The notes under the pieces were generated by a model that was given only the letters and a program-made list of their open reading frames with translations, had not been told where the DNA came from and did not search any database. From the NCBI GenBank assembly GCA_964431965.1, contig CAYSLU010000013.1, positions 899 to 64,898 of the forward strand: a stretch of 64,000 nucleotides of DNA, read 5' to 3'. Both the position numbers and the translations under genes were made by a program. Within the stretch, counting starts at the first letter, position 1. The number at the start of each line of letters is the position of its first letter. Below are positions 4,520 through 55,090 of this stretch, one piece after another. Source of the stretch: an uncultured Verrucomicrobiota bacterium (GTDB lineage: Bacteria; Verrucomicrobiota; Kiritimatiellia; CAIKKV01; CAYSLU01).

Positions 4520-6007
4520 GTGATGCTGCCGGACAAGGTGAAGCAGAAGCTGCGGGCGCTGCCCGATCAGCCGGGCTGCTACATCATGCGCGATGCCCGC
4601 GGGTCGATCATCTACGTGGGCAAGGCCGCGTCCCTGCGCAAGCGCGTGCAGTCCTACTTCCGCGACGCGACGGCGCGGCGCGGCGATCCCAAGGTCCGCA
4701 GCCTGGTGCACAGCGTCGCGGACCTCGACCTCATCGTGACGCGCACCGAGGCGGAGGCGATCCTGACCGAGGGGCAGCTGATCAAGGACTATCGGCCCCG
4801 GTACAACGTCAGCTTCCGCGACGACAAGCGCTTCCTCCTGCTTCGTGTGAATCCCGCGGATCCGCTCCCGGAGTTCAAGGCCGTCCGATTCTCGCGGGAC
4901 GACGGCGCCCGCTACTTCGGGCCATACGCGTCATCGGCCGCCGCGCGGGCGGCGCTGGACTTTGTGGAGAAGCGCTTTGGCATCCGGAAGTGTCCCCCGA
5001 GGGTTCCCACCGAGGAGGATCATCGCCACTGCATAAACGACATCGTCCGGTTCTGCTCGGCCCCGTGCATCGGGAAGGTGACGGCGGCGGAGTATCACGC
5101 GCGAGTCGCCGAGGCCGGGGCATTCCTGGAGGGCGAGCGCCCCGAGCTGCTGAAGGAGTTGCGTGAGGCCATGACAGCGGCGGCGGCGGCACGTGAGTTC
5201 GAGCGGGCGGCGGCGCTGCGGGACACGCTCCTGCTGCTGCAGGCGGTCGTCCGTCAGCGGAACCGGCTGGGCCTGACGCCGGAGCTGGCCGCGTCCGAAG
5301 GCCTGGCTGGCGTGGCGGAGCTGCAGCGCGTCCTCGAGGCGGATTCCCCCCCCCGCGTGATCGAGGCGTTCGACATATCCAACATATCGGGCACGCACTC
5401 CGTTGCGAGCATGGTCTGTGCGGTTGACGGGATCCCGCAGCGGAACCGCTACCGGCGGTTCCGCATCCGGACGGTCGAGCAGTCCGATGATCCGGCGATG
5501 ATGGCGGAGGTGATCCGCCGCCGGTATCAGCGCGTGCTGGCGGAGGGGGCCGCGCTGCCGGATCTGGTGCTGGTCGATGGCGGCATCACGCAGCTCCAGG
5601 CCGCGCGGCGGGAGCTTGAGCGGCTCGGCCTGCGCCAGCTGGCGGCGGCGGGGCTGGCGAAGCGGTTCGAGGAGCTCTACCGGCCGGGGCGGAGCGAGCC
5701 GCTGCTGCTGCCCCGCGATTCCCGCGCGCTGCGGGTGCTGCAGCGGCTGCGCGACGAGGCCCACCGGTTCGCCCTGACGTACCATCGCCAGCTGCGGGCG
5801 CGCCGGCTGCGCGATTCCGCGCTCGACGACGTGCCCGGCCTGGGCGAGAAGCGCAAGCGGGCCCTCCTGGAGCGGTTCGGGTCGCTGCGCCGCCTGATGC
5901 GCGCGTCTGCCGATGAGATCGCGGGGGTGGCGGGGATCGGACCGGGGCTGTCGCGTTCGGTCCTCGAGCACCTGGGTGTCGTGGCTCCGGCCGATGGGGA
6001 GCCCTGA
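4520..6007 (+). CDS. uvrC: excinuclease ABC subunit C
   Basis: It has a GIY-YIG N-terminus (GCYIMRDARGSIIYVGKA), a UVR motif (EFERAAALRDTL), an RNase H-like endonuclease block (RVIEAFDISN) and a C-terminal (HhH)2 (VPGLGEKRKRALLERFGS...IAGVAGIG). At 495 aa it is compact. Confidence 0.85.
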   Translation: MMLPDKVKQKLRALPDQPGCYIMRDARGSIIYVGKAASLRKRVQSYFRDATARRGDPKVRSLVHSVADLDLIVTRTEAEAILTEGQLIKDYRPRYNVSFRDDKRFLLLRVNPADPLPEFKAVRFSRDDGARYFGPYASSAAARAALDFVEKRFGIRKCPPRVPTEEDHRHCINDIVRFCSAPCIGKVTAAEYHARVAEAGAFLEGERPELLKELREAMTAAAAAREFERAAALRDTLLLLQAVVRQRNRLGLTPELAASEGLAGVAELQRVLEADSPPRVIEAFDISNISGTHSVASMVCAVDGIPQRNRYRRFRIRTVEQSDDPAMMAEVIRRRYQRVLAEGAALPDLVLVDGGITQLQAARRELERLGLRQLAAAGLAKRFEELYRPGRSEPLLLPRDSRALRVLQRLRDEAHRFALTYHRQLRARRLRDSALDDVPGLGEKRKRALLERFGSLRRLMRASADEIAGVAGIGPGLSRSVLEHLGVVAPADGEP

Positions 6008-6028: not shown

Positions 6029-7435
6029 TCAGGTCAGCGCGACCCGGTCTCCGTACGCGGGAACAGACGTCTCAAGCTGCCGGCGCTCCCGGACGTACGA
6101 GGCGAATGACTGCGCGGCGTCCGGCTCGCCGTGTGTAACGAACACGCGGCGAACCGGAGCTTGGAATCCGGACAGCCAGCGCAGCAGCTCGTCGCGATCC
6201 GCGTGGGCGGAGAAGCCGGTCAGCTGCTCCACGTGCGCCTGGACCCGGTAGACCTGGCCGAGGATCCGTACGTCCTTCACCCCGTCGGTGATGATGCGCC
6301 CCAGCGTGCCGACCGCCTGGTAGCCGACGAACACGACGGCGCTTTCGCGCCGCGTAATGTTCGACACGAGGTGGTGCTTGATTCGGCCGCCCGTGCACAT
6401 GCCCGACCCGGCGATGAGCACGGCGCTGCCCTTGACGCGGTTGATCGCCTTCGACTGATCGACGGACTCCACCATCACGAGGCCCGGGAATTCGAAGGGC
6501 GAGCGCCGGCCCTGGACCAGCCGGGTCATCTCCTCGTCGAACAGGTACGTGTGTCGCATGAACACGCGCGTGACGCTGACGGCCATGGGGCTGTCGATGA
6601 AGACCAGGACGTGCGGGATCGAGTTGGCGAGCAGCATCAGGTTCAGGTGGTACAGAATGTCCTGGGTCCGCTCAACGGCGAAGCTCGGGATCACGATGTT
6701 GCCGCCGGCGCGGCAGGTCCGGTCGATGATGGATCCGAGCTTTTCGGCGGACTGGTCGATCCGGTCGTGGAGGCGGTTGCCGTAGGTGGACTCGACGAGG
6801 ATGTAGTCCGCGCGCTCGAGGAGCGTGGGATCCCGGAGGATCGGGCTGTTCCAGCGGCCCAGGTCGCCGGAGAAGACGATCCGCCGCTCGGACGGGCCGG
6901 CGCCAAACCGGGCCTCGACCATCGCCGATCCGAGAATGTGCCCGGCGTCGTGGAGGGTGACGGACAGGTCGTCCGACAGCGCGTGGGCGACTCCGCAGCG
7001 GACGGTTTCGAAGCGCGTGGCCGCCAGCTCCGCGTCGTGGGGGGTGTAGAGCGGGCCCGGCGGCGGGTCCTTCTTCCTGCCCTCCTTCTCGTGGCGCCGG
7101 GCCTTGAAGGCCGCGTCCTCATCCTGTATCCGCGCCGTGTCGAGCATCTGGATCTTGGCGATCTCGGCCGTGGCGGGGGTGCAGACGACCGGCCCTCCGA
7201 ATCCCTCCCGGACGAGGCGCGGCAGCAGGCCGCAGTGGTCGAGGTGGGCGTGGGTGAGCACGACCGCATCGATCGACGACGGGGGGACCGGGAAGGGATC
7301 CCAGTTTCTGGACTGCAGCTGCCGTTCCTGATACAGGCCGCAGTCCACGAGCACGCGCAGCCCGCCCGCCTCGAGGAGGTAGCGGGAGCCGGTAACGCCG
7401 CCGGCGGCGCCGAGGAACCGAAGGCTGGCGGTCAT
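6029..7435 (-). CDS. MBL-fold beta-CASP metallo-hydrolase, a putative RNA-processing ribonuclease
   Basis: The in-frame ATG at 7435 (MTASLRFLGAAGG...) fits better than the 933-aa track ORF, whose first 465 aa are Arg-rich noise overlapping the upstream gene. The MBL motif THAHLDHCG is followed by beta-CASP/RMMBL blocks. The start overlaps the upstream gene's stop as ATGA. Confidence 0.75.
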   Translation of the reverse strand: MTASLRFLGAAGGVTGSRYLLEAGGLRVLVDCGLYQERQLQSRNWDPFPVPPSSIDAVVLTHAHLDHCGLLPRLVREGFGGPVVCTPATAEIAKIQMLDTARIQDEDAAFKARRHEKEGRKKDPPPGPLYTPHDAELAATRFETVRCGVAHALSDDLSVTLHDAGHILGSAMVEARFGAGPSERRIVFSGDLGRWNSPILRDPTLLERADYILVESTYGNRLHDRIDQSAEKLGSIIDRTCRAGGNIVIPSFAVERTQDILYHLNLMLLANSIPHVLVFIDSPMAVSVTRVFMRHTYLFDEEMTRLVQGRRSPFEFPGLVMVESVDQSKAINRVKGSAVLIAGSGMCTGGRIKHHLVSNITRRESAVVFVGYQAVGTLGRIITDGVKDVRILGQVYRVQAHVEQLTGFSAHADRDELLRWLSGFQAPVRRVFVTHGEPDAAQSFASYVRERRQLETSVPAYGDRVALT

Positions 7436-10400
7436 CCCCATATGACGAGCTCCGCTTCCTGCTTGCAGGCCAGGTTCCGGTTGCAGGGCATGACCCGGAT
7501 TCCGTAGGCGTGCGGCCCGTTCTCCTGAACCACGTAGTCGGCGGTCAGGGTCAGCGTGCCCTTCGTGTCCGGCACCGGCCGCAGCGGGACCGACTGGGGG
7601 TAGCCGATGAAATCGCGCCCATCCGTGCGCCCGATGATCAGCTCGGCGAGCACCTCGTCCGGCTCGAGCTGGCCGGGATCGACGCGCACGACGACGGAGA
7701 ACGGCTTCCCGACGACGATGGAGTCGCCGCGCGTTCCCTTCAAGCGCACGTCGAGGATGCGCAGCGAGGAGAACCGCATCGGAATGCGGCGCTTCCAGTC
7801 GGACGTTTCGCGGGCGAGCTTGAACCGGTCGGCGGCGACCAGCGCAGCGCGCTCCGCGGTGGGGATGTAGAGCTCGGAGAGGTACTCCTTGAGCATCCGC
7901 TCCGAGCTGAAGCGGGGGGCGAGCGTCTCGACCGCCCGCTTGCTCATGGCGACCCACTCTTGCGGGATGCCGGATGCGTCCCGGTTGAAATAGAGCCGGA
8001 CGATCGTGTCCTCGATGAGCGAGTAGAGCGACTTGCTGTCCGTCTCGAGCGAATCCTCGTCGTCCGGCGCCGGCGTCGTCGCCACCGGCCCGATCGTCCA
8101 CCCGTTCGTGCCGTCGTAGCCCTCGCACCACCAGCCGTCGGAGATGCTGAGGTTGAGCACCCCGTTGACGGCGGCCTTCTGGCCGCTGGTGCCGCTGGCC
8201 TCGAGCGGGCGGCGCGGCGTGTTCAGCCACACGTCGACGCCGCGCACCATGGCCCGCGCGGCGCGCAGGTCGTAGTCCTCGATGAAGAAGATGCGGCCCT
8301 TGAAGCGGGGCTCGTTGCACACGTCCACGACCTTCTTCAGGAGCTCGATTCCCATCCGGTCCTCCGGGTGGGCCTTTCCCGCGAAGAGGATCTGCACGGG
8401 CATGTCGTCGTCGCTCACGATGCGCTCGAGCCGCTCGAGGTCGGACAGGATCAGGTCCGCCCGCTTGTAGGGCGCGAACCGCCGCGCGAACCCGATCCAG
8501 AGCGCCGACGGGTTGATGAGGGACAGCAGCTCCTCCCGGTAGCTGCAGGACGCGCTGTACTTCGCCCAGCACCGCGTGATGTTCTCGCGGAGGAAGACCG
8601 CGAGCTTCTGCTTGAGCTCGACGCGCGTCTGCCAGAAGGCGGCGCTCGGGATGTCGCGGACGCGCTTCCATCGGTCGGTGCTGCTGATCCGGCGGGGCCA
8701 GTCGAGGCCGAGATAGGTGTTCAGCAGATCGGCCATCCGCGGGTCGATGAAGGACGGGGCGTGGATGCCGTTCGTGACGTGGGTGATCGGCACGTCGGAG
8801 TAGTGGAAGCCCTTCCACGCATCCTGCCACATGCGGCGCGAGACGAACTCGTGCATCCGGCTCACGGCGTTCCGCGCGTGGGAGAGCTTGAGGCCCATCA
8901 TGGTCATGTAGAACGGCTTGTCTTCGCCGGCCTCCCGGCGCCCGAGCTCCCAGAACTGGGACCAGCTGATGCCGACGCGCTGGACGTAGCTCGCGAAGTA
9001 GTACTCGATGATGTCCTTCGCGAAGCGCTCGTGCCCGGCCTCGACCGGGGTGTGCGTGGTGAAGGCGACGCGGGCGCGGACGGCCTCCTTGGCCTCGTCG
9101 AAGCTCAGTCCTTCATCGGCCATCATCTCGCGGATCAGCTCGAGGATGAGGAAGGCGGAGTGCCCCTCGTTCATGTGGTAGACGGAGGGGCGTATGCCGA
9201 GCTTGCGGAGCATGCGGACGCCGCCCATGCCCAGCAGGATCTCCTGCTCGATGCGCGTGCGGCGGTCGGCGCAGTAGAGCCGGGACGTGATGTGGCGGTC
9301 CTGCGGGGTGTTGCGGACGGTGTCGGTGTCCAGCAGGTAGAGCGGGACCCGGCCGACCTGGACTTCCCATATGCTGGCGTGCAGGGTGCGGCCCGGCAGG
9401 TCCAGCGTGATCTGAACGTCGTTCCCGCGGTCGTCGCGGACGACCTGGACCGGCATGTTCGAGAAGTCGCTGTCGGGGTACTCGGCGATCTGCCAGCCGG
9501 CGCGGTCGATGCGCTGGCGGAAGTAGCCCTGCCGGTAGAGCAGTCCGGCGCCGATCAGCGGGAGGTTAAGATCGCTGGACGATTTGAGGTGGTCGCCCGA
9601 CAGGACGCCGAGCCCGCCGGAGTAGACGGGCAGGCACTCGTGAATGCCGTACTCGGTGGAAAAATAGGCGACCGGCGAGGACCACTTGATGCGGCCGCGG
9701 GGCTCGGCTGCCGCGCTCTGCGACTTGTCGTGCATGTACTCGTCAAACTGCTGCAGGATCTGGGCGTAGAGGGCGGTGTACCCCTCGTCCCGCGCCATTT
9801 CCTGGAGCCGGGCCGGCGAGACGGATTCGAGCATCCGGACGGGATTGTTCTCCATCGAATCCCAGAGGTGCGGGTCGAGGTGGGAGAAGAGCGAGAGCGC
9901 GCGCGGGTTCCAGGCCCACCACAGGTTGTACGCCAGCTCGCGGAGCCGGATGAGGTTCTGGGGCAGGTTCACCTCGGCTGTCACGATGCGGAAGTGGGGC
10001 TGGGACGAGCCGGTGCCGACGAAGGCGTGCTTGAGCTCTTCCTTCGGCCCGGCGATTCCCTGCGAGCGGCGGCGGGCCGCCTGCTCGAGCGCGACGTCGT
10101 AGGCGCGGCGGTAGTGCCCGTAGAAGTCCTTCCACTGGGCGTGCTCGGCCACCCGGCGGGCGGACGCCCGCCGCTGGGCGAGCTCCGCGTCGGACCAGCC
10201 GATCACCCCGCGCAGGATTTGATGCAGCTCGCCGGCGATGGTCGGCATGTCCTTCTTCTGCCGGTCCAGCAGGATCACGCCGCCGTTCTGGCCGTCGGTG
10301 GTTTCGCGCGCCCAGAGCCCGAAGCCGGCCTGATCGGTCGTGACGGTCGGCACGGCGAACGCGGCGCTTTCGAGGGGGGTGTAGCCCCACGGCTCGTAGT

Positions 10401-11682
10401 AGGAGGGGAAGACGCCGATGTCCGCGCCGGAGATCGCCGTGTAGTAATCCATGTTGAGGGCGCCGTCGTACCCGTTCAGGAAGGCGGGCACGAAGATGAC
10501 GCCGACCCGGCTGTCCGGGGCGTTGCGCAGGCCGAGCTCGCGGCATGAGTTCGTGATGGGGTCACCGGCCTCGTGGTCGAGGCGGTGGGTGGCGAGCCGG
10601 TGCATGCCGCCGGGGTGGGCGGGGTCGACGATGCTGCTGGGGATCACTTCCTTGTGGCCGGCCATGACGAGGCAGAATGCCAGCACGGGGCGATCGGGGG
10701 TCGTGTCAGCCTCCAGGCGCTGAAGCGCCTGCAGGAAGACGTCGATTCCCTTGTTGTGGAACTCATACCGGCCGGAGATGACCATGATGGTCGTGTGCGG
10801 CGGGAAGGTCTTGTCGAGGAAGCGGGCCGCGAAGTCCAGCAGGCGCTGGCGGGCGGCGAGCGCCGGCGCGCGGTCCACGCTCAGGTCCGGGATCGACCCG
10901 AGGTCGAGGCCGTTGGGAACGATGACGTCCGGGGTTCGGCCCAGAAAGCTCCGGGCCTCGGTTGCCGTGATCGCGCTGACGGTCGTGAAGCAGTCCGACT
11001 CGCGCGCCGTGGCGCACTCCATCGAGCACTTGGCCACGACGTTGAAGGCGGTGGCTTCCTTCTGCGGGGAGATGTGCTCGATGTCGCCGTAGATGTCGAC
11101 GCCCGATCCAGCCAGGGCGCGGCCGAGCATGGTGGCGTGGGTCGTGAACACCGTGGCGATCTCGGGCGTGGACTTCTTCACCTGAAGGAGCGCGGCGCCG
11201 CACATCCACTCGTGCACGTGCGCGATGGCCTCCCCGCCGTGGGGTGCGACGACCACGTTGTAGATCGTCTCGATCACCTCGCCGCAGGCGTGGCCGAACA
11301 TGACCGGTTCGATGTAGTCCCACTGGCCCGCGATGGAGTCGATCCCGTAGTCCTCCCACAGCTGGTAGAGGAGCTGCTCCTTGTTGTACTTCCGCCCGAA
11401 GTCGATCAGGATGGCCTTCGGGTTGCCGGGGATGCGCCACCGGCCGAAGCGGCACGGAATCTCCTTGATCGCCGTGGCCTCGCGCACGCGCTGCCAGCAC
11501 TCCTCGTCGGTCTCCTCGAACTCCGCGTTGGTCTTGAGGTCGGGGCCGAGCACGTAGTAGTTCTCGCCGAAGGTATCGGCGGCCGTGCGGGCCTTGCTCT
11601 GCAGGACCGTGTAGATCCCGCCGACCTTGTTGCAGACTTCCCAGCTCACCTCGAAGAGGTATCGGTTCGGTTTCGGCTCCAT
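7432..11682 (-). CDS. bifunctional fusion of an N-terminal GT3 eukaryote-type glycogen synthase and a C-terminal GT35 alpha-glucan phosphorylase
   Basis: The N-terminus [19 protein letters not shown] is the GT3 glycogen synthase signature. After about 560 aa come the alpha-glucan phosphorylase N-domain ([11 protein letters not shown]...[13 protein letters not shown]) and the PLP-lysine block [25 protein letters not shown]. Total length is 1416 aa. Confidence 0.8.
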   Translation of the reverse strand: [1416 protein letters not shown]

Positions 11683-11685
11683 GGC

Positions 11686-12879
11686 TCAGGCTCCCTTCGG
11701 CTGCTCGACCCGGTTGGCGAAGTCGGCCAGCACGTTCATGTATGTGATGTAGGCATCGTACGGCGAGGCGTACGGGTTGAAGTACTTGTGCACGTCTCCG
11801 TCCGCGAACCACTTGGTGCACATGTAGTAGAAGTGGTCCGACGTCTGCAGCAGGCGCCACGTCCGGAGGAGCTCGGGGTCGCGGCGGCGCTTGACGGCGC
11901 GCTCCATCTTGTAGAGCGCGGCCGCGGCGTCGTTCTGCATGTTGTTGCCGAGCCAGGCCGTGAGGTCGCGCTCGACGTCCGCCCAGGAAACGAAATGCGG
12001 AACGTCGATCTGGGCGACGGGCGCGTAGGAGGAGGCCACTTCCGCGGGTGTCTGGAACCGGAAGTCGGGGTGCTTGAGCACCTCGCGGGGGATGACGCGG
12101 AGGAAGTCGAAGATGCCGGTCTCGCTCCACTGGTGCTCGCCGAAGGTCTCGTAGTCCATGAAGAGATTGATGGTCTCGCCGGCGGCGTTGATCTGGTGGA
12201 TCCAGGCGGCGAACTTCTCGGCCGTGAGGGGGTACTCGGACCACTCGCGGTTGGAGAAGCGGAAGGCGATGTCGTCCGACAGCCGGTAGTTCTTGAGCAG
12301 GCACTTGATGCGCGTGCAGCCGGCGGGCTGGTAGACGTAGTTCGGGCTGCGCCACCCCAGGATGTGGTCGGCGCCCTCGGCCAAGATGGCCTGGTAGCCC
12401 ATGGCTTCGACCGCGCGGGCCACGTCGTTGTTGTAGATCAGCTCCGTGTTGCGGAACGTGCGGGCCGTGTGCCCGAAGAGCGCCTTCACCCGCTGCCGGT
12501 GCTGCAGGACCTGCTGCTTGAACTCGGCGGGCGAGTGCAGGAACGCCAGCGAGTGGTAGTAGGTCTCGTTGAGGAATTCGACGCAGCCGGTGTCGGCGAG
12601 GCGCCGGAAGCTGTCCAGAACGGCCGGGTTGTACTTCTCGAACTGGTCGAGGGCGACGCCGCTGATGGAGAAGGAGAACCGGAACTCGCCCCGGAACTCG
12701 CGGGCGAGCTCGAGCAGGAGCGCGTTGGCGGGGAGGTAGCACTTCGTGGCCACCTTGTTCAGGATGTCGCGGTTCTTCTCCTCGTCCTCGTAGGCGTGCG
12801 AGCGGCCGATGTCGAAGAAGCTGTAGCGCCGCAGCCGGAACGGCTGGTGCACCTGGAAGTAAAAGCACAGTGACGGCAT
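11686..12879 (-). CDS. glycoside hydrolase family 57 protein (alpha-amylase / glucan branching-like)
   Basis: The N-terminal MPSLCFYFQVHQPFRLRRY block is characteristic of GH57. Length is 397 aa. It sits 3 nt downstream of the GT4 gene. Confidence 0.85.
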   Translation of the reverse strand: MPSLCFYFQVHQPFRLRRYSFFDIGRSHAYEDEEKNRDILNKVATKCYLPANALLLELAREFRGEFRFSFSISGVALDQFEKYNPAVLDSFRRLADTGCVEFLNETYYHSLAFLHSPAEFKQQVLQHRQRVKALFGHTARTFRNTELIYNNDVARAVEAMGYQAILAEGADHILGWRSPNYVYQPAGCTRIKCLLKNYRLSDDIAFRFSNREWSEYPLTAEKFAAWIHQINAAGETINLFMDYETFGEHQWSETGIFDFLRVIPREVLKHPDFRFQTPAEVASSYAPVAQIDVPHFVSWADVERDLTAWLGNNMQNDAAAALYKMERAVKRRRDPELLRTWRLLQTSDHFYYMCTKWFADGDVHKYFNPYASPYDAYITYMNVLADFANRVEQPKGA

Positions 12880-12924: not shown

Positions 12925-14214
12925 TCAGCGCGTGATTCGCTCGTAGATCGACAGGACCGCGTCCGCCGCGGCCGCCCATCGGATGGACCGCAGCTCCTGG
13001 CGGCCGTTCCGCACCACCTCCCGCGCCAGAACGGGATACCGAAGGAGGGCGGCGATCTTCCCCGCCATCTCATCGATGTCCCAGAAGTCGACCTGCAGCG
13101 CGTGCTTGAGCACCTCGGCCACTCCGGCCTGGCGGGACACGATCACCGGAACGTCGTAGAGCATGGCCTCGAGCGGCGCGATTCCGAACGGCTCGGACAC
13201 GCTCGGCATGACATAGACGTCGCTCATCGCGTACATCCGCTCGACATCGTCCGCCCCCAGGAAGCCGGTGAAGTGGAACGCGCTCCCGATCCGCAGCTGG
13301 GCGACGCGGTCCACCATCCGCGGCAGCATGTCGCCGCTGCCCGCCATCACAAACGTGACGTCGGGGAGGCTGTGGAGGACGCGCGCGGCGGCCTCGACGA
13401 AGTAGTCCGGGCCCTTCTGGAACGTGACGCGGCCGAGGAAGAGCACGATGCGGCGCCCGTGCTCCTTCCGGACATGGTACACGGCGCCGGCCCGGCGGCG
13501 GGAGACGGCGTTGTGCACGACGGAGACCTTCTCGGGCGCGATTCCGTACCGGCTCAGGATGAGGCCGCGCGTGTAGTGGCTGACGGCGACGACGTGGTCC
13601 GCCGTCTCCATGGCCAGCTTCTCGATGGCGTAGACGTCGCGGTTGATGTTTTCCCCGCTGCGGTCGAACTCCAGGGCGTGCGCGTGGTACACGAGGGGCT
13701 TGCCGGAGAGCTTCCGCGCGCGGATGCCAGCCAGCGCGGTCATCCAGTCGTGCGCGTGGATGACATCAAAGCGCTCCCGCAGGGAGAGGGCGCCGGCCAC
13801 CTCGCTGTAGCGGATGACCTCCGACAGGAGGTTCGGCCCGTAGTCGCCGCCCATGTCGATCACGCTCTCGTGATGCCGGGGCTCCGGTCCGGACTCGCGC
13901 TCCCACTCGCGCCGGCGGAGCAGGGCCCGGTACTCGGGCTCGTTCAGGTAGGGCCGCAGCAGGGAGTCGACGCAGCGGACCTCCTCTTCGAGGAGGAATC
14001 GCTCGAGGCGCCGACGGCCATGGGCCACGCGCAGCGGGACGTGGGCGGCCGAGATCAGGTGCACGTGCGAGTCGGCCGGGCCGCGGGCGCGGGGGATGAC
14101 GAACAGGATCTCGGCGCCCCGTTGCCGCATGGCCATGGTCAGCCCGTGGCAGGCCGTTCCCAGACCGCCGCTGATGTGCGGCGGGAACTCCCAGCCAAAC
14201 ATGAGGACGCGCAT
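12925..14214 (-). CDS. GT4-family glycosyltransferase
   Basis: The N-terminus (VLMFGWEFPPHISGGLGTAC) and the C-terminal EPFGIAPLEAM block fit the GT-B GT4 fold. Length is 429 aa. Confidence 0.8.
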   Translation of the reverse strand: MRVLMFGWEFPPHISGGLGTACHGLTMAMRQRGAEILFVIPRARGPADSHVHLISAAHVPLRVAHGRRRLERFLLEEEVRCVDSLLRPYLNEPEYRALLRRREWERESGPEPRHHESVIDMGGDYGPNLLSEVIRYSEVAGALSLRERFDVIHAHDWMTALAGIRARKLSGKPLVYHAHALEFDRSGENINRDVYAIEKLAMETADHVVAVSHYTRGLILSRYGIAPEKVSVVHNAVSRRRAGAVYHVRKEHGRRIVLFLGRVTFQKGPDYFVEAAARVLHSLPDVTFVMAGSGDMLPRMVDRVAQLRIGSAFHFTGFLGADDVERMYAMSDVYVMPSVSEPFGIAPLEAMLYDVPVIVSRQAGVAEVLKHALQVDFWDIDEMAGKIAALLRYPVLAREVVRNGRQELRSIRWAAAADAVLSIYERITR

Positions 14215-14217: not shown

Positions 14218-16215
14218 TCAGCCTCCCTTCCGCCGCGAAGGGCTGTCCAGCACCTTCAGCAGGCGCAGGATCTCGGCGACGCTCCACGCCTGCGCGATGC
14301 AGCCGTTCGGCCGGTGCGGAGGGTCGCCGTCGAACACCTCCGAGATGCTGCCCAGCCCGGCGTCCGAGAGGTGGTTGTCCAGGAGGGGGGCGATCGACCG
14401 GCGCAGGAAGGCGACGGCCTCCGACCGGTTGCGCGACACCCGCAGCATCGCGTCGCCGAAGTGGCCGAGCAGCCAGGGCCACGCCGTGCCCTGATGATAG
14501 GATCGGTCGCGCTCCTCGGGGCTCCCGGCGTAGCGCCCGCGGTAGCGGGGATCGGTCGGCGAGAGGGTGCGCAGCCCGAAGGGGGTCAGCAGGTCGTCGC
14601 GGACGCGGCGGACCACCGCCGTGGCCTGGTCGGGCTCCAGCGGCGAATGCGGCAGCGACACGGCGAACACCTGGTTCGGGCGTACCGACGCGTCGAGGCG
14701 CGCGCCGTCATGCACGTCTCCGAGGCAGCCGCCGGCGGCGTACCAGAACATCGCCCGGAAGGCGGCGGCGATCTGCTCCGGCGGGGCCGGCGGGGCAAAG
14801 CCCGAGTCGCCGAACGTGCGGGCGAGCGCGACGGCTTCGCAGACGGCGTTGTACCAGAGGGCGTTGACTTCGACCGGGAACCCGTGCCGGGGGGTGACGG
14901 GGCGGCCGTTCAGGCGCGCGTCCATCCACGTCAGCTGGGTGTCGGCGTCGCCGGCGCGCAGCAGCCCGCTCGGCGCCATGCCGATCCCGAAGTCCGTTCC
15001 GCGGGCGAACGCCGCGAGGATGCGCTTCATCGCCGGCCACAGCCCGTCGCGGACCACGGCGTCCGAGCCGCCATACCGTCGCAGTTGCTGGACGGCCCAG
15101 AAGAGCCATAGCGAGGCGTCGACCGAGTTGTAGGCGGCGCGGCCGTCGGATCCGATGCAGTTCGGGATGAGCCCCTTGTGCTCGCGTGCGGCCATGGCCA
15201 GCAGGATGGCCGCTCCCTCGTCTGCCCGGCCGCGACAGAAGGTCAGGCCCGGCAGCGATATGAGCGTGTCGCGGCCCCACGAGCCGAACCAGGGATAGCC
15301 GGCGACCACGGCCGGCTCGCCGCCCGGCCAGCGGACCAGAAAATCATCGGCCTGGTGGGCCAGCCGGACGGCGGGCGATTCCCCGCTTCTGGCGGCACGC
15401 GCGGTGGCGCGGGCGGCGGGCGGGGGGGTGGCGCGCCGGGAAGCCTCCCGCTTCCAGAGGTCCAGCGGCGAGGCGGACGGATCGGACGTGGAGGCGCGCA
15501 GCACGAGCACGCGCCCGGTTCGCAGCGGGAACTCGAACACGCCGGGCTGGAAGAGGTCTTCCCGGCCCGGGTAGCCGCGCTGCTCGTCGGTCACGTACTC
15601 GAACTGCCGGTACCAGAGCGGAGACGGCGAGAAGCCGGGCCGGATGTTCGTCGTGAGGCACAGGGGCGGCATGCCATTGTACGGCTGGATCTTGAACCCA
15701 TTCTCGATGGGGAACGTCCGGACCTGGAGAAAGATGTTTTCGCTCGTCAGCGCATCGGCGGCCCGGAAGGCGAGCAGGGGGCGGATCTGGATCGAGAACG
15801 GCGCGTCGGCGCGCTCGACGAAGTACCGGACGAGAACGGTGTTTTCGCCGTGAACCATCATCACGCTCTTGTGGATTCGGATGCCGCCGACGCGGTAGAC
15901 GGCGTGCGGCCCGTGATCCAGGCGGAACTCCTCCAGGTGGCGGTGGCCGTGCGGGTGGAACACGCCGGGGAACTTGTGGCAGGAGAGGGGGAACTCGCGC
16001 CCCTGGGCCACCAGGGTCTCGTCGATGCCGGAGAGCAGCACGAAGCGGCCGGGCGGCGTGTCCAGGCTGGCGACCAGGTACCCGTGGTATCGGCGGGTGT
16101 GGCACGAGACGACGGTGCTGGACGCGTAGCCGCCCAGGCCGTTCGTATCCAGCCATTCGAGCTCCAGGGCTTCCCGAAGGTTCTGGCTGTGCTCGTGCGT
16201 GAATCTGATTTCCAT
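14218..16215 (-). CDS. amylo-alpha-1,6-glucosidase / glycogen debranching enzyme family protein
   Basis: Its N-terminal domain resembles the bacterial/archaeal GDE N-domain, and the C-terminal region resembles an (alpha/alpha)6 GDE_C catalytic domain. Length is 665 aa. It is the first gene of the minus-strand glucan operon. Confidence 0.75.
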   Translation of the reverse strand: MEIRFTHEHSQNLREALELEWLDTNGLGGYASSTVVSCHTRRYHGYLVASLDTPPGRFVLLSGIDETLVAQGREFPLSCHKFPGVFHPHGHRHLEEFRLDHGPHAVYRVGGIRIHKSVMMVHGENTVLVRYFVERADAPFSIQIRPLLAFRAADALTSENIFLQVRTFPIENGFKIQPYNGMPPLCLTTNIRPGFSPSPLWYRQFEYVTDEQRGYPGREDLFQPGVFEFPLRTGRVLVLRASTSDPSASPLDLWKREASRRATPPPAARATARAARSGESPAVRLAHQADDFLVRWPGGEPAVVAGYPWFGSWGRDTLISLPGLTFCRGRADEGAAILLAMAAREHKGLIPNCIGSDGRAAYNSVDASLWLFWAVQQLRRYGGSDAVVRDGLWPAMKRILAAFARGTDFGIGMAPSGLLRAGDADTQLTWMDARLNGRPVTPRHGFPVEVNALWYNAVCEAVALARTFGDSGFAPPAPPEQIAAAFRAMFWYAAGGCLGDVHDGARLDASVRPNQVFAVSLPHSPLEPDQATAVVRRVRDDLLTPFGLRTLSPTDPRYRGRYAGSPEERDRSYHQGTAWPWLLGHFGDAMLRVSRNRSEAVAFLRRSIAPLLDNHLSDAGLGSISEVFDGDPPHRPNGCIAQAWSVAEILRLLKVLDSPSRRKGG

Positions 16216-16288: not shown

Positions 16289-16312
16289 GCAAAAAGCGAC
16301 AGCAAAAAGCGA
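16289..16312. promoter_or_regulatory. direct repeat GCAAAAAGCGA x2 in the promoter region of the glucan operon, a candidate operator
   Basis: GCAAAAAGCGA occurs at 16289-16299 and 16302-16312. It is one of the few A-rich stretches in the window and lies 75-100 nt upstream of the GDE start at 16215 on the minus strand. Confidence 0.3.
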
Positions 16313-16405
16313 ACCGCCGCGTGATGGGCCGGTGACGCGAGGGGGACGGAGCCCGAACCGGCCGGGCACGGCCGGCTCCAAGGAACCCGCTTCGCTTCGT
16401 CCCGT

Positions 16406-16473: not shown

Positions 16474-17256
16474 TCAGACCGGAGCCGGCGTCTCGCCCCG
16501 GCGGATCGCGTCGATCGTCTTGACCAGCCGCACGGGCAGGTTGCTCGGCACGAAGGCGGCCAAGTTGATCGGCCGCGAGGCGGCATCGCGCATCCCGCTC
16601 TCGTCGTAGACGATCACGGGCACGCCTTTGACGCTGGGCAGGGTGGACAGGATGGCGGCCGCGGCCGTGCCTTTCATGCGGGGGAGCAGCTGCTTGATCA
16701 CGATGACGGCCGGCGGCTCCATCACCGCCCGCTCGATGACCGCGTAGCCGTCCGCCACGGCGGTTACGGCATAGCCGGCCATGCCGATCACTTTGACCAT
16801 GTTTTCGCGCACCTCGGGATCGTCCTCGGCGAGGAGGACCTTCCATCCGGCTTCGCTGTCCGCCCCGCCGCCCGCGCTGGCGCGCCGCGCGGAGATGATC
16901 CGCCGCACCTCGCGGGTGAGCGTCTCGGGGTCCGACGTCTTGGGAAGGAACCCCGTCACCTCCACCTGCTGGAAGAACTTGTCCAGCTCGGCGCGCGCCG
17001 TGAAGATCAGGACGGGGTACATCAGGCTGCCCTGCGGAGTGGTCACCTTTCGGAGAAACGCCATGCCGCCCTCGCCGGGCATGCTGATGTCCAGGATGAT
17101 CAGGTCCGGCCGCGCGTCGTTCAGCCGTTCGAGCGCCTGCTCGCTGCTGGCGGCGCGGATCACCGCGTAGCCTTCCGACTCGAGCCGGTCCCCCACGGTC
17201 AACAGGATGGCCGGATCGTCGTCAACCAGCAGAATCGTATCTTTGTGTCCGCTCAT
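16474..17256 (-). CDS. response regulator with two receiver domains; the second looks like a pseudo-receiver
   Basis: Domain 1 has LLVDDD, ILDISMPG and FLPK. In domain 2 the ILD position reads VIVIKQLLP, so the phospho-acceptor Asp appears to be replaced by Lys. Confidence 0.8.
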   Translation of the reverse strand: MSGHKDTILLVDDDPAILLTVGDRLESEGYAVIRAASSEQALERLNDARPDLIILDISMPGEGGMAFLRKVTTPQGSLMYPVLIFTARAELDKFFQQVEVTGFLPKTSDPETLTREVRRIISARRASAGGGADSEAGWKVLLAEDDPEVRENMVKVIGMAGYAVTAVADGYAVIERAVMEPPAVIVIKQLLPRMKGTAAAAILSTLPSVKGVPVIVYDESGMRDAASRPINLAAFVPSNLPVRLVKTIDAIRRGETPAPV

Positions 17257-19955
17257 GGTTTCTCCTCCTGCGTTGTCTGGGGTGTCGTCTTGCCGTGCTG
17301 AAACGCTGTTCGTCCGATGATGGTTTCCTCGACCGCGTCAATGACCCGGTCGCGATGCCGCGGATGGGCGACGACGCGGATGGCCAGGTCTAGGAAGACC
17401 CGCATGTGGGCGTCGGTCGGCGAGTCGGATGCCACGGCCACGATCGGCACCTCGCGGAGCGCGTCACTGCACTTCAGGCGGATGGCCTCATCGAAGCCGC
17501 TGTCCGCGTTGATGACGATGCAGCTCGGCCGCTGGGCTCCGGCTGTCGGCGGCGTCTCCTCGGGGTGCTCGCTCGCGACGAGGCGGTAGCCGAACCCGGC
17601 CAACTGGCGCTCCACGGGCTCGCGCGCGTCTCCGAGCGGCCCGGCGATCAGGATGAGCGGCGGCTCGGTGGGCGGCAGGCGGACGAGGACCTGCGTGCCG
17701 CCGGCTCGCCCGGGCGCGGGGCTCGTCACCGACAGGTCGCCGCCGTGCAGTCCGATGATTTCCTTCGATATGGCCAGCCCGAGGCCAGACCCCTGGGTGT
17801 GGGTGCCGGCCCGGAAGTAGCGCTCGCCGATCTTCGGCAGCGCATCGTGGGGAATGCCGACCCCGGTGTCGGTAACCGTCAGCAGCGGTGCGCCGGACGG
17901 ATCGCGCGACACGGCGACGGACACGGACCCGCCGGCTGGAGTGAACTTGATGGCATTTCCAATGATGTTGTAGATGACACGCTCGAGGCGGGCCGGGTCG
18001 CATTCCACGAAGCCCGCCCTGTTGTCGACGGCCAGCTCGACCGTCACCAGCTTCTCCTCCGCCTGAACGCGCAGGCTCTCGGCGCCGCGCGCGACGATCC
18101 GGGAGAAGGGGAGCCGGATCCGGGCCATCTGCTGGGCGATGGAGTCGGCCTGCCTCATGTCGAGGATCGCGTTGACCGTGTGCAGCATCCGCTGCGACTC
18201 GCCTTCCAGCATTTTGAGGTACCGGTAGGCGTTCTCCGGAAGCGGCCCCGCCACGCCCTTGAGCAGGTTCCGGGTGGCGTAGATGAAGCTCGCGAGCGGG
18301 GTCCGGAGCTCGTGCGACACGTTCGAGACGAACTCCGACCGGATCCGGTCGTGGTCCTGAAGCCGCTCGATCGCGCGGCGCAGATCGACCTCCATGTGCT
18401 TGCGGTCGGTGATGTCGCTCCACATGGCGTGGATCAGGTTCTTGCCCCGGATGGTGATGAGCCGACTGCTGACCAAGACGTCGCGCAGCTCCCCGTTCTG
18501 GCGCCGGAACCGGGTTTCGTAAACGTCACGCCCCTCGCGGGCCGCCTTCTCGATGTGGCGGAGCAGGCCGCTCGCCTCGGTGCCCGCGTCGAAGTCGGTG
18601 ATGCGCAGCCGGGCATACTCCTCGCGGGTGTAGCCGAGCGACTCGTGCGCGGGGTCGTTGAACTCGGCGATCTCCTCGGTCTGGGCGTCGAAGATCACGA
18701 TCGAGTCCGCGGCTTGGTCGAAGATCGTGTGGTACCGCTCCATCGCTTCGCGGAATGCGGCCTCCACCCGCCGGCGCTCGGTGATGTCCTCGGCCATGGT
18801 CAGCTGCCAGATCGGCCGTGCGTCGGCATCCCGGATCATGGACGTGGTGGTGGCGGACCACACGATGTCGCCGGAGCGGGTCACATAGCGCTTCTCGAGC
18901 TTGTAGAAGGGGATCTCGCTCGCCGCCAGCTGATCGGTGTAGACGGTCTCGGCGTGCAGGTCCGGAGGGAAGGTCAGGTCCTGGCTCCTCATCCCGACCA
19001 GCTCCGACTCGGCGAAGCCGAGCATGGCGCACATGCTGCTGTTGACCCTCAGGAAGCGGCCGTCGGGCCCGCTCATCCCCATCCCGATCGGGCTTTCCTC
19101 GAACACCTTGCGGAACCGCTCCTCGCTGTCCCGGAGCGCCTCCTCCCCCCGCCGGTACTCCGTCATGTCCGTGATCATGGCCAGCGAGCCGATGTACCGG
19201 CCCTGCTTGTCGGTCAGGGGGTTCGACGAGACCAGCGTCCAGACGGGCCCGCCGTCCCGCCGCCGGAAGAGGAAGTCGTGGTGCTCGGATATTCCCTGGC
19301 GACGGCGCTCCAGGTAGGCCACGGCCTCCCGCTGGCCGTCCTCGTCCATGAAGTCGAACATGGATGCGCCCAGCATGTCCTGCACGTCCACGCCCAGCAT
19401 GTCGGCCATCTTGGCATTGACGAACGTGGTCATGCCCGAGGCGTCGATGGCCCATATCCCTTCCTGCGCGGTCTCGATGATCTGCCGGTGCCACTCTTCG
19501 CGCTCGTGCAGCAGGTCCTCGATCCGGCGCCGCTCGCGGCGATCCTCGGCCTCGCGCAGCTCCCGCTCGATGGCGGGCGTCAGCCGCGACAGGTTGTCCT
19601 TCATGACGTAGTCCTGCGCGCCGGCCTTCATGGCGCGGACGGCGGCTTCCTCGCCGATGGCGCCGGACACAACGATGAAGGGCGTGCTGAGGCGCGCGCG
19701 GCGGCAGATGTCCAGCGCCGCGAGCGCGTCGAAGGCCGGCATGCTGTGGTCGGACAGGATCACGTCCCACTGGCCCCAGCCGATGGCGTCCTGCATCGCG
19801 AGCGCCGAATCCACGCGGTGGGCCGTCACCTCGTAACCGCCGCGGCGGAGCTCCCTCTGGATGAGCAGCGCGTCATCCTCGGAGTCCTCGATCATGAGGG
19901 CGCGCAGGGGCTTCAGGGGGGCGGCTTCCGGGGCGGTGGGATCCGGGGATGTCAC
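17253..19955 (-). CDS. hybrid sensor histidine kinase (REC-PAS-PAS-PAS-HisKA-HATPase with a degenerate C-terminal receiver-like region)
   Basis: The receiver has MIEDSEDD...ILSDHSMP. It carries three PAS-like segments, an H-box (VSHELRTPL) and a G-box (GSGLGLAISKEI). I place the start at GTG 19955-19953, preceded by a perfect AGGAGG 8 nt upstream, which makes a GTGA overlap with the upstream RR stop. An alternative ATG lies at 19895. Confidence 0.8.
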   Translation of the reverse strand: MTSPDPTAPEAAPLKPLRALMIEDSEDDALLIQRELRRGGYEVTAHRVDSALAMQDAIGWGQWDVILSDHSMPAFDALAALDICRRARLSTPFIVVSGAIGEEAAVRAMKAGAQDYVMKDNLSRLTPAIERELREAEDRRERRRIEDLLHEREEWHRQIIETAQEGIWAIDASGMTTFVNAKMADMLGVDVQDMLGASMFDFMDEDGQREAVAYLERRRQGISEHHDFLFRRRDGGPVWTLVSSNPLTDKQGRYIGSLAMITDMTEYRRGEEALRDSEERFRKVFEESPIGMGMSGPDGRFLRVNSSMCAMLGFAESELVGMRSQDLTFPPDLHAETVYTDQLAASEIPFYKLEKRYVTRSGDIVWSATTTSMIRDADARPIWQLTMAEDITERRRVEAAFREAMERYHTIFDQAADSIVIFDAQTEEIAEFNDPAHESLGYTREEYARLRITDFDAGTEASGLLRHIEKAAREGRDVYETRFRRQNGELRDVLVSSRLITIRGKNLIHAMWSDITDRKHMEVDLRRAIERLQDHDRIRSEFVSNVSHELRTPLASFIYATRNLLKGVAGPLPENAYRYLKMLEGESQRMLHTVNAILDMRQADSIAQQMARIRLPFSRIVARGAESLRVQAEEKLVTVELAVDNRAGFVECDPARLERVIYNIIGNAIKFTPAGGSVSVAVSRDPSGAPLLTVTDTGVGIPHDALPKIGERYFRAGTHTQGSGLGLAISKEIIGLHGGDLSVTSPAPGRAGGTQVLVRLPPTEPPLILIAGPLGDAREPVERQLAGFGYRLVASEHPEETPPTAGAQRPSCIVINADSGFDEAIRLKCSDALREVPIVAVASDSPTDAHMRVFLDLAIRVVAHPRHRDRVIDAVEETIIGRTAFQHGKTTPQTTQEEKP

Positions 19956-20428
19956 AGCGCAACCTCCTGGGCAGGCGCCGCCCCTTGGGGGACAGGCGGC
20001 TGTTCGTTGAGCGTGAGCCAGTACAGCCGGAGGGCGGTCACCACACTCATGAACTCCGTGAAATCGATCGGCTTGCGCACGTAGCTGTTGCACCCGAGCC
20101 GGTAGCTTCGGAGCAGGTCGGTCTCCGTCTGGGACGAGGTGAGGATGACCACCGGCAGCAGCTGGGTGCGCGGGTCCGACCGGAGGCGCCGCAGCACCTC
20201 CAGGCCGTCGATCCGGGGGAGTTTCAGGTCAAGGAGGACCAGCCCGGGCAGATCGTTCGGGTTCCGCCCGGCGTACCCGCCGGTCCCGAAGAGGTAGTCC
20301 AGCGCCTCGGCGCCATCCCGCACCACCGCGACGGGGGGGGCGAGCTTGTGCTGACGGAACGCCCTCAGCGTGAGGTCCGCGTCGTCCGCGTTGTCTTCCA
20401 CCAGAAGGATTGAGGATTGAGTCGCCAT
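19952..20428 (-). CDS. single-domain CheY-like response regulator
   Basis: It starts MATQSSILLVEDNADDADL and has VLLDLKLP (phospho-Asp) and SYVRKP (conserved Lys). An SD-like GGGAGGAG sits 5 nt upstream of the ATG at 20428. The 281-aa track ORF has an N-terminal noise extension. Confidence 0.85.
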   Translation of the reverse strand: MATQSSILLVEDNADDADLTLRAFRQHKLAPPVAVVRDGAEALDYLFGTGGYAGRNPNDLPGLVLLDLKLPRIDGLEVLRRLRSDPRTQLLPVVILTSSQTETDLLRSYRLGCNSYVRKPIDFTEFMSVVTALRLYWLTLNEQPPVPQGAAPAQEVAL

Positions 20429-20480
20429 ACGCTCCTCCCGGGTCATCGGGGGACAAACCCCACGAATCGACGACGCGCGG

Positions 20481-23701: not shown

Positions 23702-23765
23702 CGTCCACCTCCGCGCCCGGCATCCCTCCCGTCCGGCACGCCCCCTCCCCATCGGTCCCGCCTCC

Positions 23766-24218
23766 TCAGGCGCTTCGGTCCGGGGGTGGCGGGATCTCGT
23801 TGAGCACGAGCCAGTAGAGCCCGAGCTGCTTCACGGCGTCCATGAACTGGCCAAAGTCCACCGGCTTGACCACGTAGCTGTTGCAGCCCAGCCGATAGCT
23901 CTCGGCCAGATCCCGCTCCTCCTTGGATGTCGTCAGCATGACGATCGGAAGGAGCCGGGTCCGGGGATCGGACCGGAGCCGGGACAGGACTTCCAGGCCG
24001 CTGATCCGCGGGAGCTTCAGGTCGAGCAGAACGACCGCCGGCAGGTCGTACGGGTCGCGCCCGGCGTGCGCGCCCTCGGCGAAGAGGTAGTCGAGCGCTT
24101 CCTCGCCGTCCCGGCAGACCACCAGGTCGTTGGCGATGCTGTTCTTCTTGAATGCCCGCCGCGTGAGCTCCACATCGTCCGGCGTGTCTTCGACGAGCAG
24201 GATATGCGAACGCTTCAT
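23766..24218 (-). CDS. single-domain CheY-like response regulator, paralog of 19952-20428
   Basis: It starts MKRSHILLVEDTPDD and has VLLDLKLP and SYVVKPVDF. It is about 60% identical by eye to the 19952-20428 protein. Confidence 0.85.
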   Translation of the reverse strand: MKRSHILLVEDTPDDVELTRRAFKKNSIANDLVVCRDGEEALDYLFAEGAHAGRDPYDLPAVVLLDLKLPRISGLEVLSRLRSDPRTRLLPIVMLTTSKEERDLAESYRLGCNSYVVKPVDFGQFMDAVKQLGLYWLVLNEIPPPPDRSA

Positions 24219-35552: not shown

Positions 35553-35569
35553 GGCTGACCTCCCGCTAT

Positions 35570-39765: not shown

Positions 39766-39778
39766 GGAGGGAAATCTC

Positions 39779-55070: not shown

Positions 55071-55090
55071 GCGGCGGCGGGCGGGGTGAC

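Follow-up and report, generated by a model that had tools for sequence, protein, structure and literature searches.

The glycogen phosphorylase of Segatella copri (ScGP; clade 2; PDB 9L6I; Shobu et al., PNAS 2026, PMC12912991) assembles into pentamers through its alpha-helical DUF3417 domain, and these wrap around glycogen particles; the enzyme also runs in the synthetic direction, and its R583 belongs to a distal AMP site. Eukaryotic GT3 glycogen synthases, represented by human GYS1 and Gsy2p (PDB 8CVX, 7Q0B, 3NAZ), require a glycogenin primer according to sections of a 2024 Chem Rev review (PMC11046441). Proteins combining the two activities are catalogued as KEGG K16153, 'glycogen phosphorylase/synthase' (EC 2.4.1.1 2.4.1.11; KO name in PMC8307300), and JGI names such homologues 'phosphorylase/glycogen(starch) synthase'. 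F. succinogenes S85 has its annotated synthases and its phosphorylase at separate loci (PMC6204037). Our literature search found no biochemical study or assayed enzyme of the fused GT3-GT35 architecture, and the parts of the review that cover bacterial GT3 enzymes make no mention of a fusion.

The window analysed here, a 64,000-nt stretch of DNA from an uncultured Verrucomicrobiota bacterium, carries on its minus strand exactly one ORF in the interval of interest, which starts with ATG, lies ~9 nt downstream of a Shine-Dalgarno-like motif (AAGGGAG), and is translated into 1416 aa without an internal stop (Table 1). In this single intact ORF, a glycogen synthase of eukaryotic type is genuinely fused to a glycogen phosphorylase. 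Pfam profiles on the full-length protein (Glycogen_syn PF05693, E 2e-100; DUF3417; Phosphorylase PF00343), NCBIfam and PDB alignments agree on the domain boundaries of ~560 and 850 aa given in the original prediction, and both motifs that it had named are present, the 16-residue glycogen synthase signature at residues 11-26 and EASGTSGQK at 1161-1169. Solely because opposing activities are seldom found fused, we also weighed whether one half might be a catalytically dead scaffold or the ORF an assembly or frameshift artefact, for which no evidence was found. An unrecognized stop or frameshift near residue ~560, the finding that the prediction itself had said would overturn it, is excluded because 70 orthologous ORFs from independent assemblies (1396-1433 aa) are unbroken and align almost without gaps; GC3 is also uniform at the junction (0.95-0.98 over codons 441-600, compared with 0.95 for the entire fusion ORF). 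Relatives occur in at least 595 species genomes, the best 80 all being full length, and the invariance of active-site residues in both halves across all 70 fusions rules out a dead domain. We therefore regard this explanation as highly improbable.

Table 1. Features of the fusion gene and its co-directional neighbours (positions in the window).
Feature	Coordinates	Strand	Evidence or remark
GDE_N-GDE_C debranching enzyme (GH133-type amylo-alpha-1,6-glucosidase), 665 aa, first gene of the cassette	14218..16215	-	Pfam, NCBIfam, synteny
GT4 glycosyltransferase, 429 aa, related to GlgM/GlgA	12925..14214	-	Profile matches, synteny
Short GH57 protein, 397 aa, stop 3 nt before fusion ATG	11686..12879	-	PF03065, E 9e-77
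Whole fusion ORF (GT3 glycogen synthase - linker - GT35 clade-2 alpha-glucan phosphorylase)	7432..11682	-	ORF list, translation, Pfam, NCBIfam, homologues
GT3 module, residues 1-540	10063..11682	-	PF05693; GYS1 alignment; AF2 and Foldseek
E-X7-E motif (E430...E438, within an 11-residue stretch), equivalent to human GYS1 E510/E518	10369..10395	-	Invariant in 70/70 fusions
Inter-module linker, residues 541-558 (18 aa)	10009..10062	-	Variable sequence, constrained length
GT35 clade-2 phosphorylase module, residues 559-1416	7435..10008	-	ScGP (9L6I) alignment; TIGR02094
DUF3417/alpha-helical domain, residues 573-684	9631..9966	-	PF11897, E 4.6e-35
K1169 codon, pyridoxal-phosphate lysine in EASGTSGQK	8176..8178	-	Equivalent to ScGP K609; invariant in 70/70; codon checked
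C-terminal beta-sheet domain GlgP_C, residues ~1296-1416	7435..7797	-	ScGP alignment to 850; PF28476 in protein and homologues
Metallo-beta-lactamase/beta-CASP/RMMBL hydrolase, 468 aa	6029..7435	-	ATG overlaps fusion stop (ATGA)

The synthase half matched PF05693 with 337.7 bits (cutoff 27) in two stretches covering both Rossmann lobes, and phmmer aligned residues 6-325 and 363-535 with human GYS1 residues 26-351 and 443-616 (E 4e-87). In the AF2 model the module adopts a predicted GT-B fold (pLDDT 80-94), and Foldseek comparison of this model with GYS1/Gsy2 gave TM-scores of 0.76-0.82, normalised to the target. Family and fold are thus held in common with GYS1 and Gsy2p (TM ~0.8), as are the KVGG, GRYEFxNKG and E-X7-E motifs. 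R305 and K311, the nucleotide-phosphate-binding Arg/Lys of GRYEFxNKG, were kept throughout the 70-fusion residue survey, which spans at least six phyla, together with E430, E438, H182, R188 and N257. The donor is most likely UDP-glucose. The regulatory elements of the eukaryotic enzymes are missing. The tetramerisation insert between the Rossmann lobes (human 352-442) has no counterpart in the GYS1 alignment, its place being taken by residues 326-362 (~37 aa; pLDDT low at 343-360), and the N- and C-terminal phospho-tails are absent from the GT3 half. The G6P/phospho-sensing arginine cluster is likewise not kept: human R579, R580, R582 and R588 are replaced by D498, A499, L501 and S507, which leaves R505 and R510 (human R586 and R591) as the only cluster arginines in the window protein, and the R586 equivalent is the sole cluster position commonly kept among the fusions (50 of 70).

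The phosphorylase half scored 810.1 bits against TIGR02094 'alpha-glucan family phosphorylase' (cutoff 191.7; residues 671-1273); the Thermococcales maltodextrin phosphorylase equivalog NF041129 is related, but its 792 bits fall below the cutoff of 1500 and this identity was rejected. The C-terminal 858 aa align with ScGP residues 9-850 of 852 (E 3e-198, ~42% identity) in the order N-terminal loop, alpha-helical DUF3417 domain, phosphorylase domain and C-terminal beta-sheet domain. The pyridoxal-phosphate lysine was correctly predicted, and ScGP H316, R507, R508 and K513 correspond to H877, R1067, R1068 and K1073; Y512 and E278 of ScGP are kept as well. All 70 fusions share H877, E839, R1067, R1068, Y1072, K1073 and K1169, and R1143, the equivalent of distal-AMP-site R583, is R or K in 65 of them. 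Both catalytic modules are complete and probably both active.

With no tetramerisation insert in the GT3 half, oligomerisation may be governed by the GT35 half. Coupled with the full-length match to ScGP, the ability of that enzyme to wrap glycogen and to work in the synthetic direction, and the glycogenin requirement of eukaryotic GT3 enzymes, this would be compatible with a phosphorylase half that replaces glycogenin, serving as a pentameric-ring glycogen anchor and/or making malto-oligosaccharide primers from G1P. The GT4 enzyme encoded in the same operon is, however, an equally good priming candidate, and the fully kept phosphorolysis residues fit an ordinary degradative role; we consider a priming or anchoring function doubtful. 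A more elaborate proposal, in which an ScGP-like pentameric ring sits on glycogen with five tethered GT3 heads, priming and turnover are glycogenin-independent, and AMP at the distal site sets the direction, is likewise unlikely. If true, it would amount to a self-contained glycogen machine whose AMP-set direction avoids futile cycling.

Within the protein, conservation is lowest in the segment that joins the two modules (mean identity 17%, gap fraction 0.05 for residues 541-558 in the 70-fusion alignment). The linker is predicted to be disordered, with an AF2 pLDDT of ~27 for residues 543-570 and a pTM of 0.50, and no confident inter-module packing was seen in the model, a monomer of residues 1-1200 whose truncated phosphorylase half was folded only in patches. 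From A535 to P562, two conserved anchor positions, the spacing is nevertheless tightly held across phyla at 23-29 residues (mode 26; 70 sequences), and P562, just after the linker, is invariant in 70/70. Such a constrained length could reflect a defined geometry of the two modules within an oligomer, and it is one of the observations that would favour an intramolecular reciprocal switch, in which the halves touch and one half, when active, occludes or inactivates its partner in an either/or manner; the invariant proline is another, and a third is that synthesis and breakdown share one polymer and would run as a futile cycle if left unchecked. The lack of confident packing and the poor conservation of the linker speak against this arrangement, as does the occurrence of the two enzymes as split genes in the same operon elsewhere. 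Because a split version exists and many close GT3 relatives stand alone, each half can work uncoupled. Reciprocal regulation within a single protein, which the original prediction had taken the fusion to imply, finds no support, given a linker predicted to be disordered and the missing eukaryotic arginine cluster and tetramerisation insert, and we judge a switch of this kind quite unlikely.

The fusion does not head its operon, as had been claimed, being the fourth of five co-directional genes, although the GH57 adjacency that was part of the same claim is correct. The debranching enzyme gene (PF06202, E 6e-109; TIGR01561, 397 bits, cutoff 364) is followed by the GT4, GH57 and fusion genes, and this co-directional order recurs in most of 80 loci, so that the cassette is conserved across phyla. 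The GH57 protein is a conserved partner in most loci, with homologues 65-81% identical across phyla. It had no PDB sequence match at E 1e-3, and its model (pLDDT 86) matched 4-alpha-glucanotransferase, branching enzymes, amylopullulanase and AmyC alike in Foldseek (TM 0.65-0.70, 13-16% identity). Because several GH57 activities fit the model equally, this neighbour, at 397 aa compared with the ~520 aa and C-terminal helical domain by which GH57 branching enzymes are recognised, cannot be named a branching enzyme. The beta-CASP hydrolase gene is lineage-specific and lies outside the conserved cassette: it directly follows the fusion only in the window and in its nearest relative (L085), in contrast to other K16153-type loci, and the one further occurrence (L045) is 2.7 kb away. 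An upstream PAS kinase/response regulator, considered as a conserved regulator, was not kept at other loci (a PAS kinase within the Syntrophus cluster showed just 24% generic similarity). No UDP-glucose or ADP-glucose pyrophosphorylase, phosphoglucomutase or GlgB was present among the ORFs scanned in the window, which counts against the bifunctional reading. Neither Rfam nor tRNA scanning gave a match in the window.

The architecture is not peculiar to the window but shared by hundreds of bacterial species. Orthologues come from Syntrophales, Desulfovibrionaceae, Planctomycetota, Bacteroidales and other groups, and full-length examples in Bacteroidota/Bacteroidales MAGs confirm the statement in the original prediction that similar fusions exist in Bacteroidota. 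Fibrobacterota had been named there as well, a group for which the separate loci of F. succinogenes S85 offer no such example. At least 120 homologue clusters were 58-71% identical to the fusion at 97-100% coverage, several of them named 'glycogen phosphorylase/synthase'; the nearest database protein was 71% identical among the matches listed, and identity to any of the best 80 species-representative genomes was at most 63%. By its full-length similarity to proteins so named, the fusion is assigned to the already catalogued K16153 type. The two halves diverge in step, with GT3/GT35 identities of ~60%/60% to Syntrophales, 50%/46% to Desulfovibrionaceae and 39%/37% to Bacteroidales, and the G+C content is 64-76% in the window versus 40-62% across the first 12 related loci examined. 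In a rough GT3 tree the fused forms cluster (9 state changes versus ~39 in shuffles). One metagenome contig (L081; JGI 3300029922) carries GT4, GH57, a stand-alone 556-aa GT3 gene and, after a 152-nt gap, a separate DUF3417 phosphorylase gene; gene order and families are those of the window, where the two genes form one ORF, and the GT3 and phosphorylase proteins are 42% and 38% identical to the window halves. A split version with matching gene order points to fusion of neighbouring genes, and the fused protein would have arisen from two adjacent genes of a conserved cassette, GH133 debrancher - GT4 - short GH57 - GT3 - GT35.

Taken together, the reading that we favour, with a rough probability of 0.7, is that of a K16153-type bifunctional synthase/phosphorylase born from neighbouring genes, in which the fusion serves co-expression and tethering under metabolite and AMP control and is unlikely to create an intramolecular allosteric switch. 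Most likely, fusion secures equimolar co-expression of synthase and phosphorylase, and the tether probably places elongation and phosphorolysis on one glycogen particle. Some form of control must exist because both halves active together would constitute an energy-wasting cycle. Control would probably be exerted through the levels of UDP-Glc, Pi and G1P and through AMP, which would act on the phosphorylase half as it does on ScGP, and not through the G6P/phosphorylation system of eukaryotic synthases. How this waste is avoided when the enzymes that elongate and shorten glycogen share one chain is a real biochemical question, the answer to which would describe glycogen handling in many anaerobes (among them Syntrophales, Desulfovibrio/Bilophila, gut Bacteroidales and Planctomycetota) that rely on a gene set of eukaryote/archaeal type in place of GlgC-GlgA-GlgB-GlgP-GlgX. 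The analysis corrects the operon picture, connects the fusion with the S. copri phosphorylase structure published in 2026 and gives evidence that eukaryotic regulatory elements are absent, and with the split form identified a direct comparison of fused and split enzymes becomes possible.

Compared with the systems described above, the fusion shares its catalytic residues and operon partners with K16153- and JGI-named proteins of Syntrophales, Desulfovibrionaceae, Planctomycetota and Bacteroidales, which are likewise single GT3-linker-GT35 chains (1396-1452 aa). ScGP is a stand-alone protein of 852 aa, whereas in the fusion the N-terminal loop of the phosphorylase continues from the GT3 synthase; ScGP forms a pentamer and an AMP-induced decamer and is inhibited by AMP, properties with which the fusion is compared here at the level of sequence. 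Other known fusions, TreS-Mak/Pep2 and the Neisseria GlgB-MalQ, as described in sections of the same review (PMC11046441), also join glucan enzymes of one pathway that are separate in other organisms. Those proteins, however, link consecutive steps in the same direction, whereas the fusion in the window joins opposing reactions on one polymer.

The GT3-GT35 fusion is encoded as one open reading frame that begins with ATG and is translated without an internal stop, and the coordinates, length and content given in the original prediction were all upheld by the ORF listing, the translation and the Pfam and NCBIfam matches. The 16-residue glycogen synthase signature was located at residues 11-26 and the phosphorylase motif EASGTSGQK at residues 1161-1169. 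Pfam recognized Glycogen_syn (PF05693, E 2e-100), DUF3417 (residues 573-684) and Phosphorylase (PF00343), and the NCBIfam model TIGR02094 ('alpha-glucan family phosphorylase') scored 810 bits (cutoff 191.7). GC3 was 0.95 over the whole gene and 0.95-0.98 over codons 441-600, which include the junction, and the ATG lies 3 nt past the GH57 stop codon and ~9 nt downstream of an AAGGGAG motif; together with the motifs and domain matches, these features show that the fusion had been observed correctly.

Features of the window, with the modules of the fusion given in residues
Feature	Position	Strand	Remarks
uvrC	4520..6007	+	glycogen cluster converges on it
Metallo-beta-lactamase/beta-CASP/RMMBL hydrolase	6029..7435	-	468 aa, RNase-J-like
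Fusion	7432..11682	-	1416 aa
GT3 synthase module	residues 1-540		aligns with human GYS1 26-351 and 443-616, E 4e-87
Linker	residues 541-558		least conserved stretch, 17% mean identity
GT35 module	residues 559-1416		aligns with ScGP 9-850, E 3e-198
GH57 protein	11686..12879	-	397 aa
GT4 glycosyltransferase	12925..14214	-	429 aa
GDE_N-GDE_C amylo-alpha-1,6-glucosidase (GDE)	14218..16215	-	665 aa
Terminator-like hairpin	16320..16299		between two-component run and GDE gene
Response regulators	16474..17256, 19952..20797, 23766..24218	-	
PAS hybrid kinases	17253..20093, ~20481..22500	-	
REC-HisKA_2 kinase	22586..23752	-	
DUF7657 (E 1e-92) and DUF7654 protein	33621..35675	-	684 aa; both domains recently defined
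Two adjoining large proteins, three rhodanese domains each	37489..42339	+	758 aa with metallo-beta-lactamase domain; 807 aa with sulphur-transport (Sulf_transp) membrane domain
TonB-dependent receptor	47720..50005		
Na+-translocating NADH:quinone oxidoreductase genes	53940..58092	+	NqrB-like, two Rnf-Nqr membrane subunits, NqrF-like Fer2/FAD/NAD protein

The architecture is not rare. Among the matches listed in a search of 5.8 billion proteins, 120 clusters of 1383-1452 aa were 58-71% identical to the fusion at 97-100% query coverage, several of them bearing the JGI names 'phosphorylase/glycogen(starch) synthase' or 'glycogen phosphorylase/synthase' and the NCBI name 'alpha-glucan family phosphorylase'. 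With each GTDB species represented by a single genome, at least 595 relatives were recovered. Nearly all of the best 80 of these begin at about residue 1-10 of the query and extend to 1415/1416, a few ending early at contig ends. Identities within the best 80 were 59-63% in Syntrophales, 47-51% in Desulfovibrionaceae and Bilophila, 40-43% in Planctomycetota and 36-39% in Bacteroidales, and the set also includes MAGs of Spirochaetaceae, Raymondbacteria, Synergistaceae and Deferribacteraceae. An artefactual origin was rejected given this abundance and the 70 uninterrupted ORFs (1396-1433 aa, window and best-80 loci) that align almost without gaps. The Bacteroidales relatives confirm the originally stated occurrence of such fusions in Bacteroidota; that stated for Fibrobacterota found no confirmation, the synthases and phosphorylase of F. 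succinogenes S85 being annotated separately (PMC6204037).

No near relative of the source organism seems to have been sequenced; none of the best 80 species-representative loci exceeds 63% identity for the fusion. The G+C content of the window is 64-76%, and that of the first 12 of the 80 related loci checked is 40-62%. The Nqr genes and the TonB-dependent receptor indicate a Gram-negative, respiring host. Scans of the 64-kb window for tRNA genes and Rfam families returned nothing.

Gene order on the minus strand places the fusion fourth of five genes (GDE, GT4, GH57, fusion, beta-CASP) and not at the head of the operon as originally proposed. The GH57 gene adjoins the fusion, and no GlgB, GlgC, GalU or PGM gene was found among the ORFs scanned in the window. 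The co-directional order GDE, GT4, GH57, fusion recurs in most of the best 80 related loci, including those of Syntrophales, Desulfovibrionaceae, Bilophila, Spirochaetaceae, Raymondbacteria and Bacteroidales; in Planctomycetota GT4 is often missing, or shortened in many loci. A lineage-specific element, the beta-CASP gene stands behind the fusion in the same arrangement in L085, the nearest relative (71% identity), and elsewhere among the 80 loci occurs only in L045, 2.7 kb away. Its ATG overlaps the stop codon of the fusion (ATGA), which suggests translational coupling to the glycogen operon. Directly upstream of the cassette, an uninterrupted run of two-component genes occupies the same strand (16474..24218), and this PAS kinase/response regulator run is not conserved in the other best-80 loci. 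On Syntrophus sp. contigs (L086/L087, 5473..14257), a 642-aa PAS histidine kinase lies between GDE and the fusion, in the usual place of GT4 and GH57; its similarity to the PAS kinase preceding the window operon is no more than 24%.

The short GH57 protein is more strongly conserved across phyla than the fusion, at 65-81% identity among Syntrophales, Kiritimatiellia, Planctomycetota, Raymondbacteria and Elusimicrobia, and its homologues are named 'alpha-amylase' or 'GH57 protein'. A search of solved structures found no sequence relative. Its model is confident (pLDDT 86, pTM 0.89) and resembles about equally T. litoralis 4-alpha-glucanotransferase, GH57 branching enzymes, A. aeolicus amylopullulanase and AmyC (TM 0.65-0.70, 13-16% identity), so a branching-enzyme label for this gene is unproven. 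The closest solved structures to the GT4 protein are mycobacterial maltose-1-phosphate synthase GlgM (E 6e-25) and P. abyssi GlgA, and GT4 could be the primer-forming enzyme of the cassette. A cluster of GH133, GT4 and GH57-amylase genes is also described in the archaeon Picrophilus torridus, where the role of GT4 is described as unclear (PMC11046441).

The fusion is best read, from the comparison of gene arrangements and GT3 sequences, as a union of two neighbouring genes of the cassette. A search with the GT3 half through 1.84 billion representatives (50% identity) gave 467 clusters at E<=1e-30; of the best 150, a GT35 part is present in 50, which fill 33 of the top 40 ranks, and absent from the other 100 (median length 582 aa). 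A rough tree built by neighbour joining from 133 GT3 domains required 9 fused/stand-alone changes versus ~39 after shuffling (minimum 31), so that fused forms group together, alongside some fissions or independent events. The gene order of the window also occurs in split form on a metagenome contig (L081, JGI 3300029922): behind GT4 and GH57 come a stand-alone GT3 of 556 aa and, across a 152-nt spacer, a DUF3417 phosphorylase that is encoded separately and is 38% identical to the C-terminal half of the fusion. Two more stand-alone GT3 genes lie behind GT4-GH57 or GDE.

Neither half looks like a pseudo-enzyme by its residues, every position probed being invariant in 70/70 fusions. In the synthase these are the KVGG glycines, H182, R188, N257, R305 and K311 (GRYEFxNKG), and E430 and E438 of the E-X7-E motif, which align with human GYS1 E510/E518; in the phosphorylase, H877, E839, R1067, R1068, Y1072, K1073 and the PLP lysine K1169 align with H316, E278, R507, R508, Y512, K513 and K609 of the stand-alone Segatella copri glycogen phosphorylase (ScGP, 852 aa, PDB 9L6I; PMC12912991). 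The residue preceding the PLP lysine varies (M 39, Q 16, E 13), and GQK is thus one among several normal variants. UDP-glucose is the probable donor of the GT3 half, in view of what is established for GT3 enzymes and of a report that Bacteroidetes lack GlgC (PMC10395257).

The best-supported picture is of two autonomous modules, both predicted to be active, on a disordered but length-constrained tether: the spacing between conserved A535 and invariant P562 is 23-29 residues (mode 26, 70 fusions). Such a tether would give 1:1 expression and bring both activities to the same glycogen particle, with direction set by substrate and effector levels. A less likely alternative, close to the reciprocal regulation originally proposed, would be an oligomer-dependent switch between the halves. 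The AF2 model is confident for the GT3 half (pLDDT 80-94; TM 0.76-0.82 to GYS1/Gsy2, normalized to target), and with pLDDT ~27 at residues 543-570 and pTM 0.50 it offers no support for a fixed synthase-phosphorylase interface, a weak negative because the model is monomeric, covers residues 1-1200 and carries no PAE. A further alternative, also less likely, is that a phosphorylase ring serves priming or anchoring; five ScGP subunits assemble around glycogen, and the enzyme can work in the synthetic direction too (PMC12912991).

Judged against GYS1, the eukaryotic glycogen-synthase controls are absent from the fusion's sequence. Human R579, R580, R582 and R588 correspond to D498, A499, L501 and S507, and only R586 (R505; arginine in 50/70 fusions) and R591 (R510; 9/70) are retained in the window; G6P activation of GYS1 needs R582 and R586 (PMC9287172). 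The tetramerisation insert (human 352-442) has shrunk to ~37 poorly predicted residues and, unlike GYS1, the GT3 half has no N- or C-terminal phospho-tails. The GT35 module is assigned by sequence to clade 2, whose layout comprises an N-terminal loop, an alpha-helical domain, the phosphorylase domain and a further beta-sheet domain at the C-terminus (PMC12912991). R583 of the distal AMP site in ScGP, mutation of which abolishes both the formation of decamers in response to AMP and the inhibition of glycogenolysis by AMP (PMC12912991), corresponds to R1143 (R in 57/70, K in 8/70), and an action of AMP on the phosphorylase half like that described for ScGP is plausible. With 792 bits where the Thermococcales maltodextrin-phosphorylase equivalog demands 1500, the fusion does not belong to that equivalog; it did not classify as a eukaryote-style regulated glycogen synthase either, and classified as GT3, clade-2 GT35 (TIGR02094) and a K16153-type fusion. 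Our literature search found no paper characterising a GT3-GT35 fusion; KEGG gives the architecture its own orthologue, K16153, 'glycogen phosphorylase/synthase [EC 2.4.1.1 2.4.1.11]' (PMC8307300), which also appears in a glucan-synthesis KO list (PMC11093988). By its sequence, the window protein is a fairly divergent addition to a known, widely distributed enzyme family.
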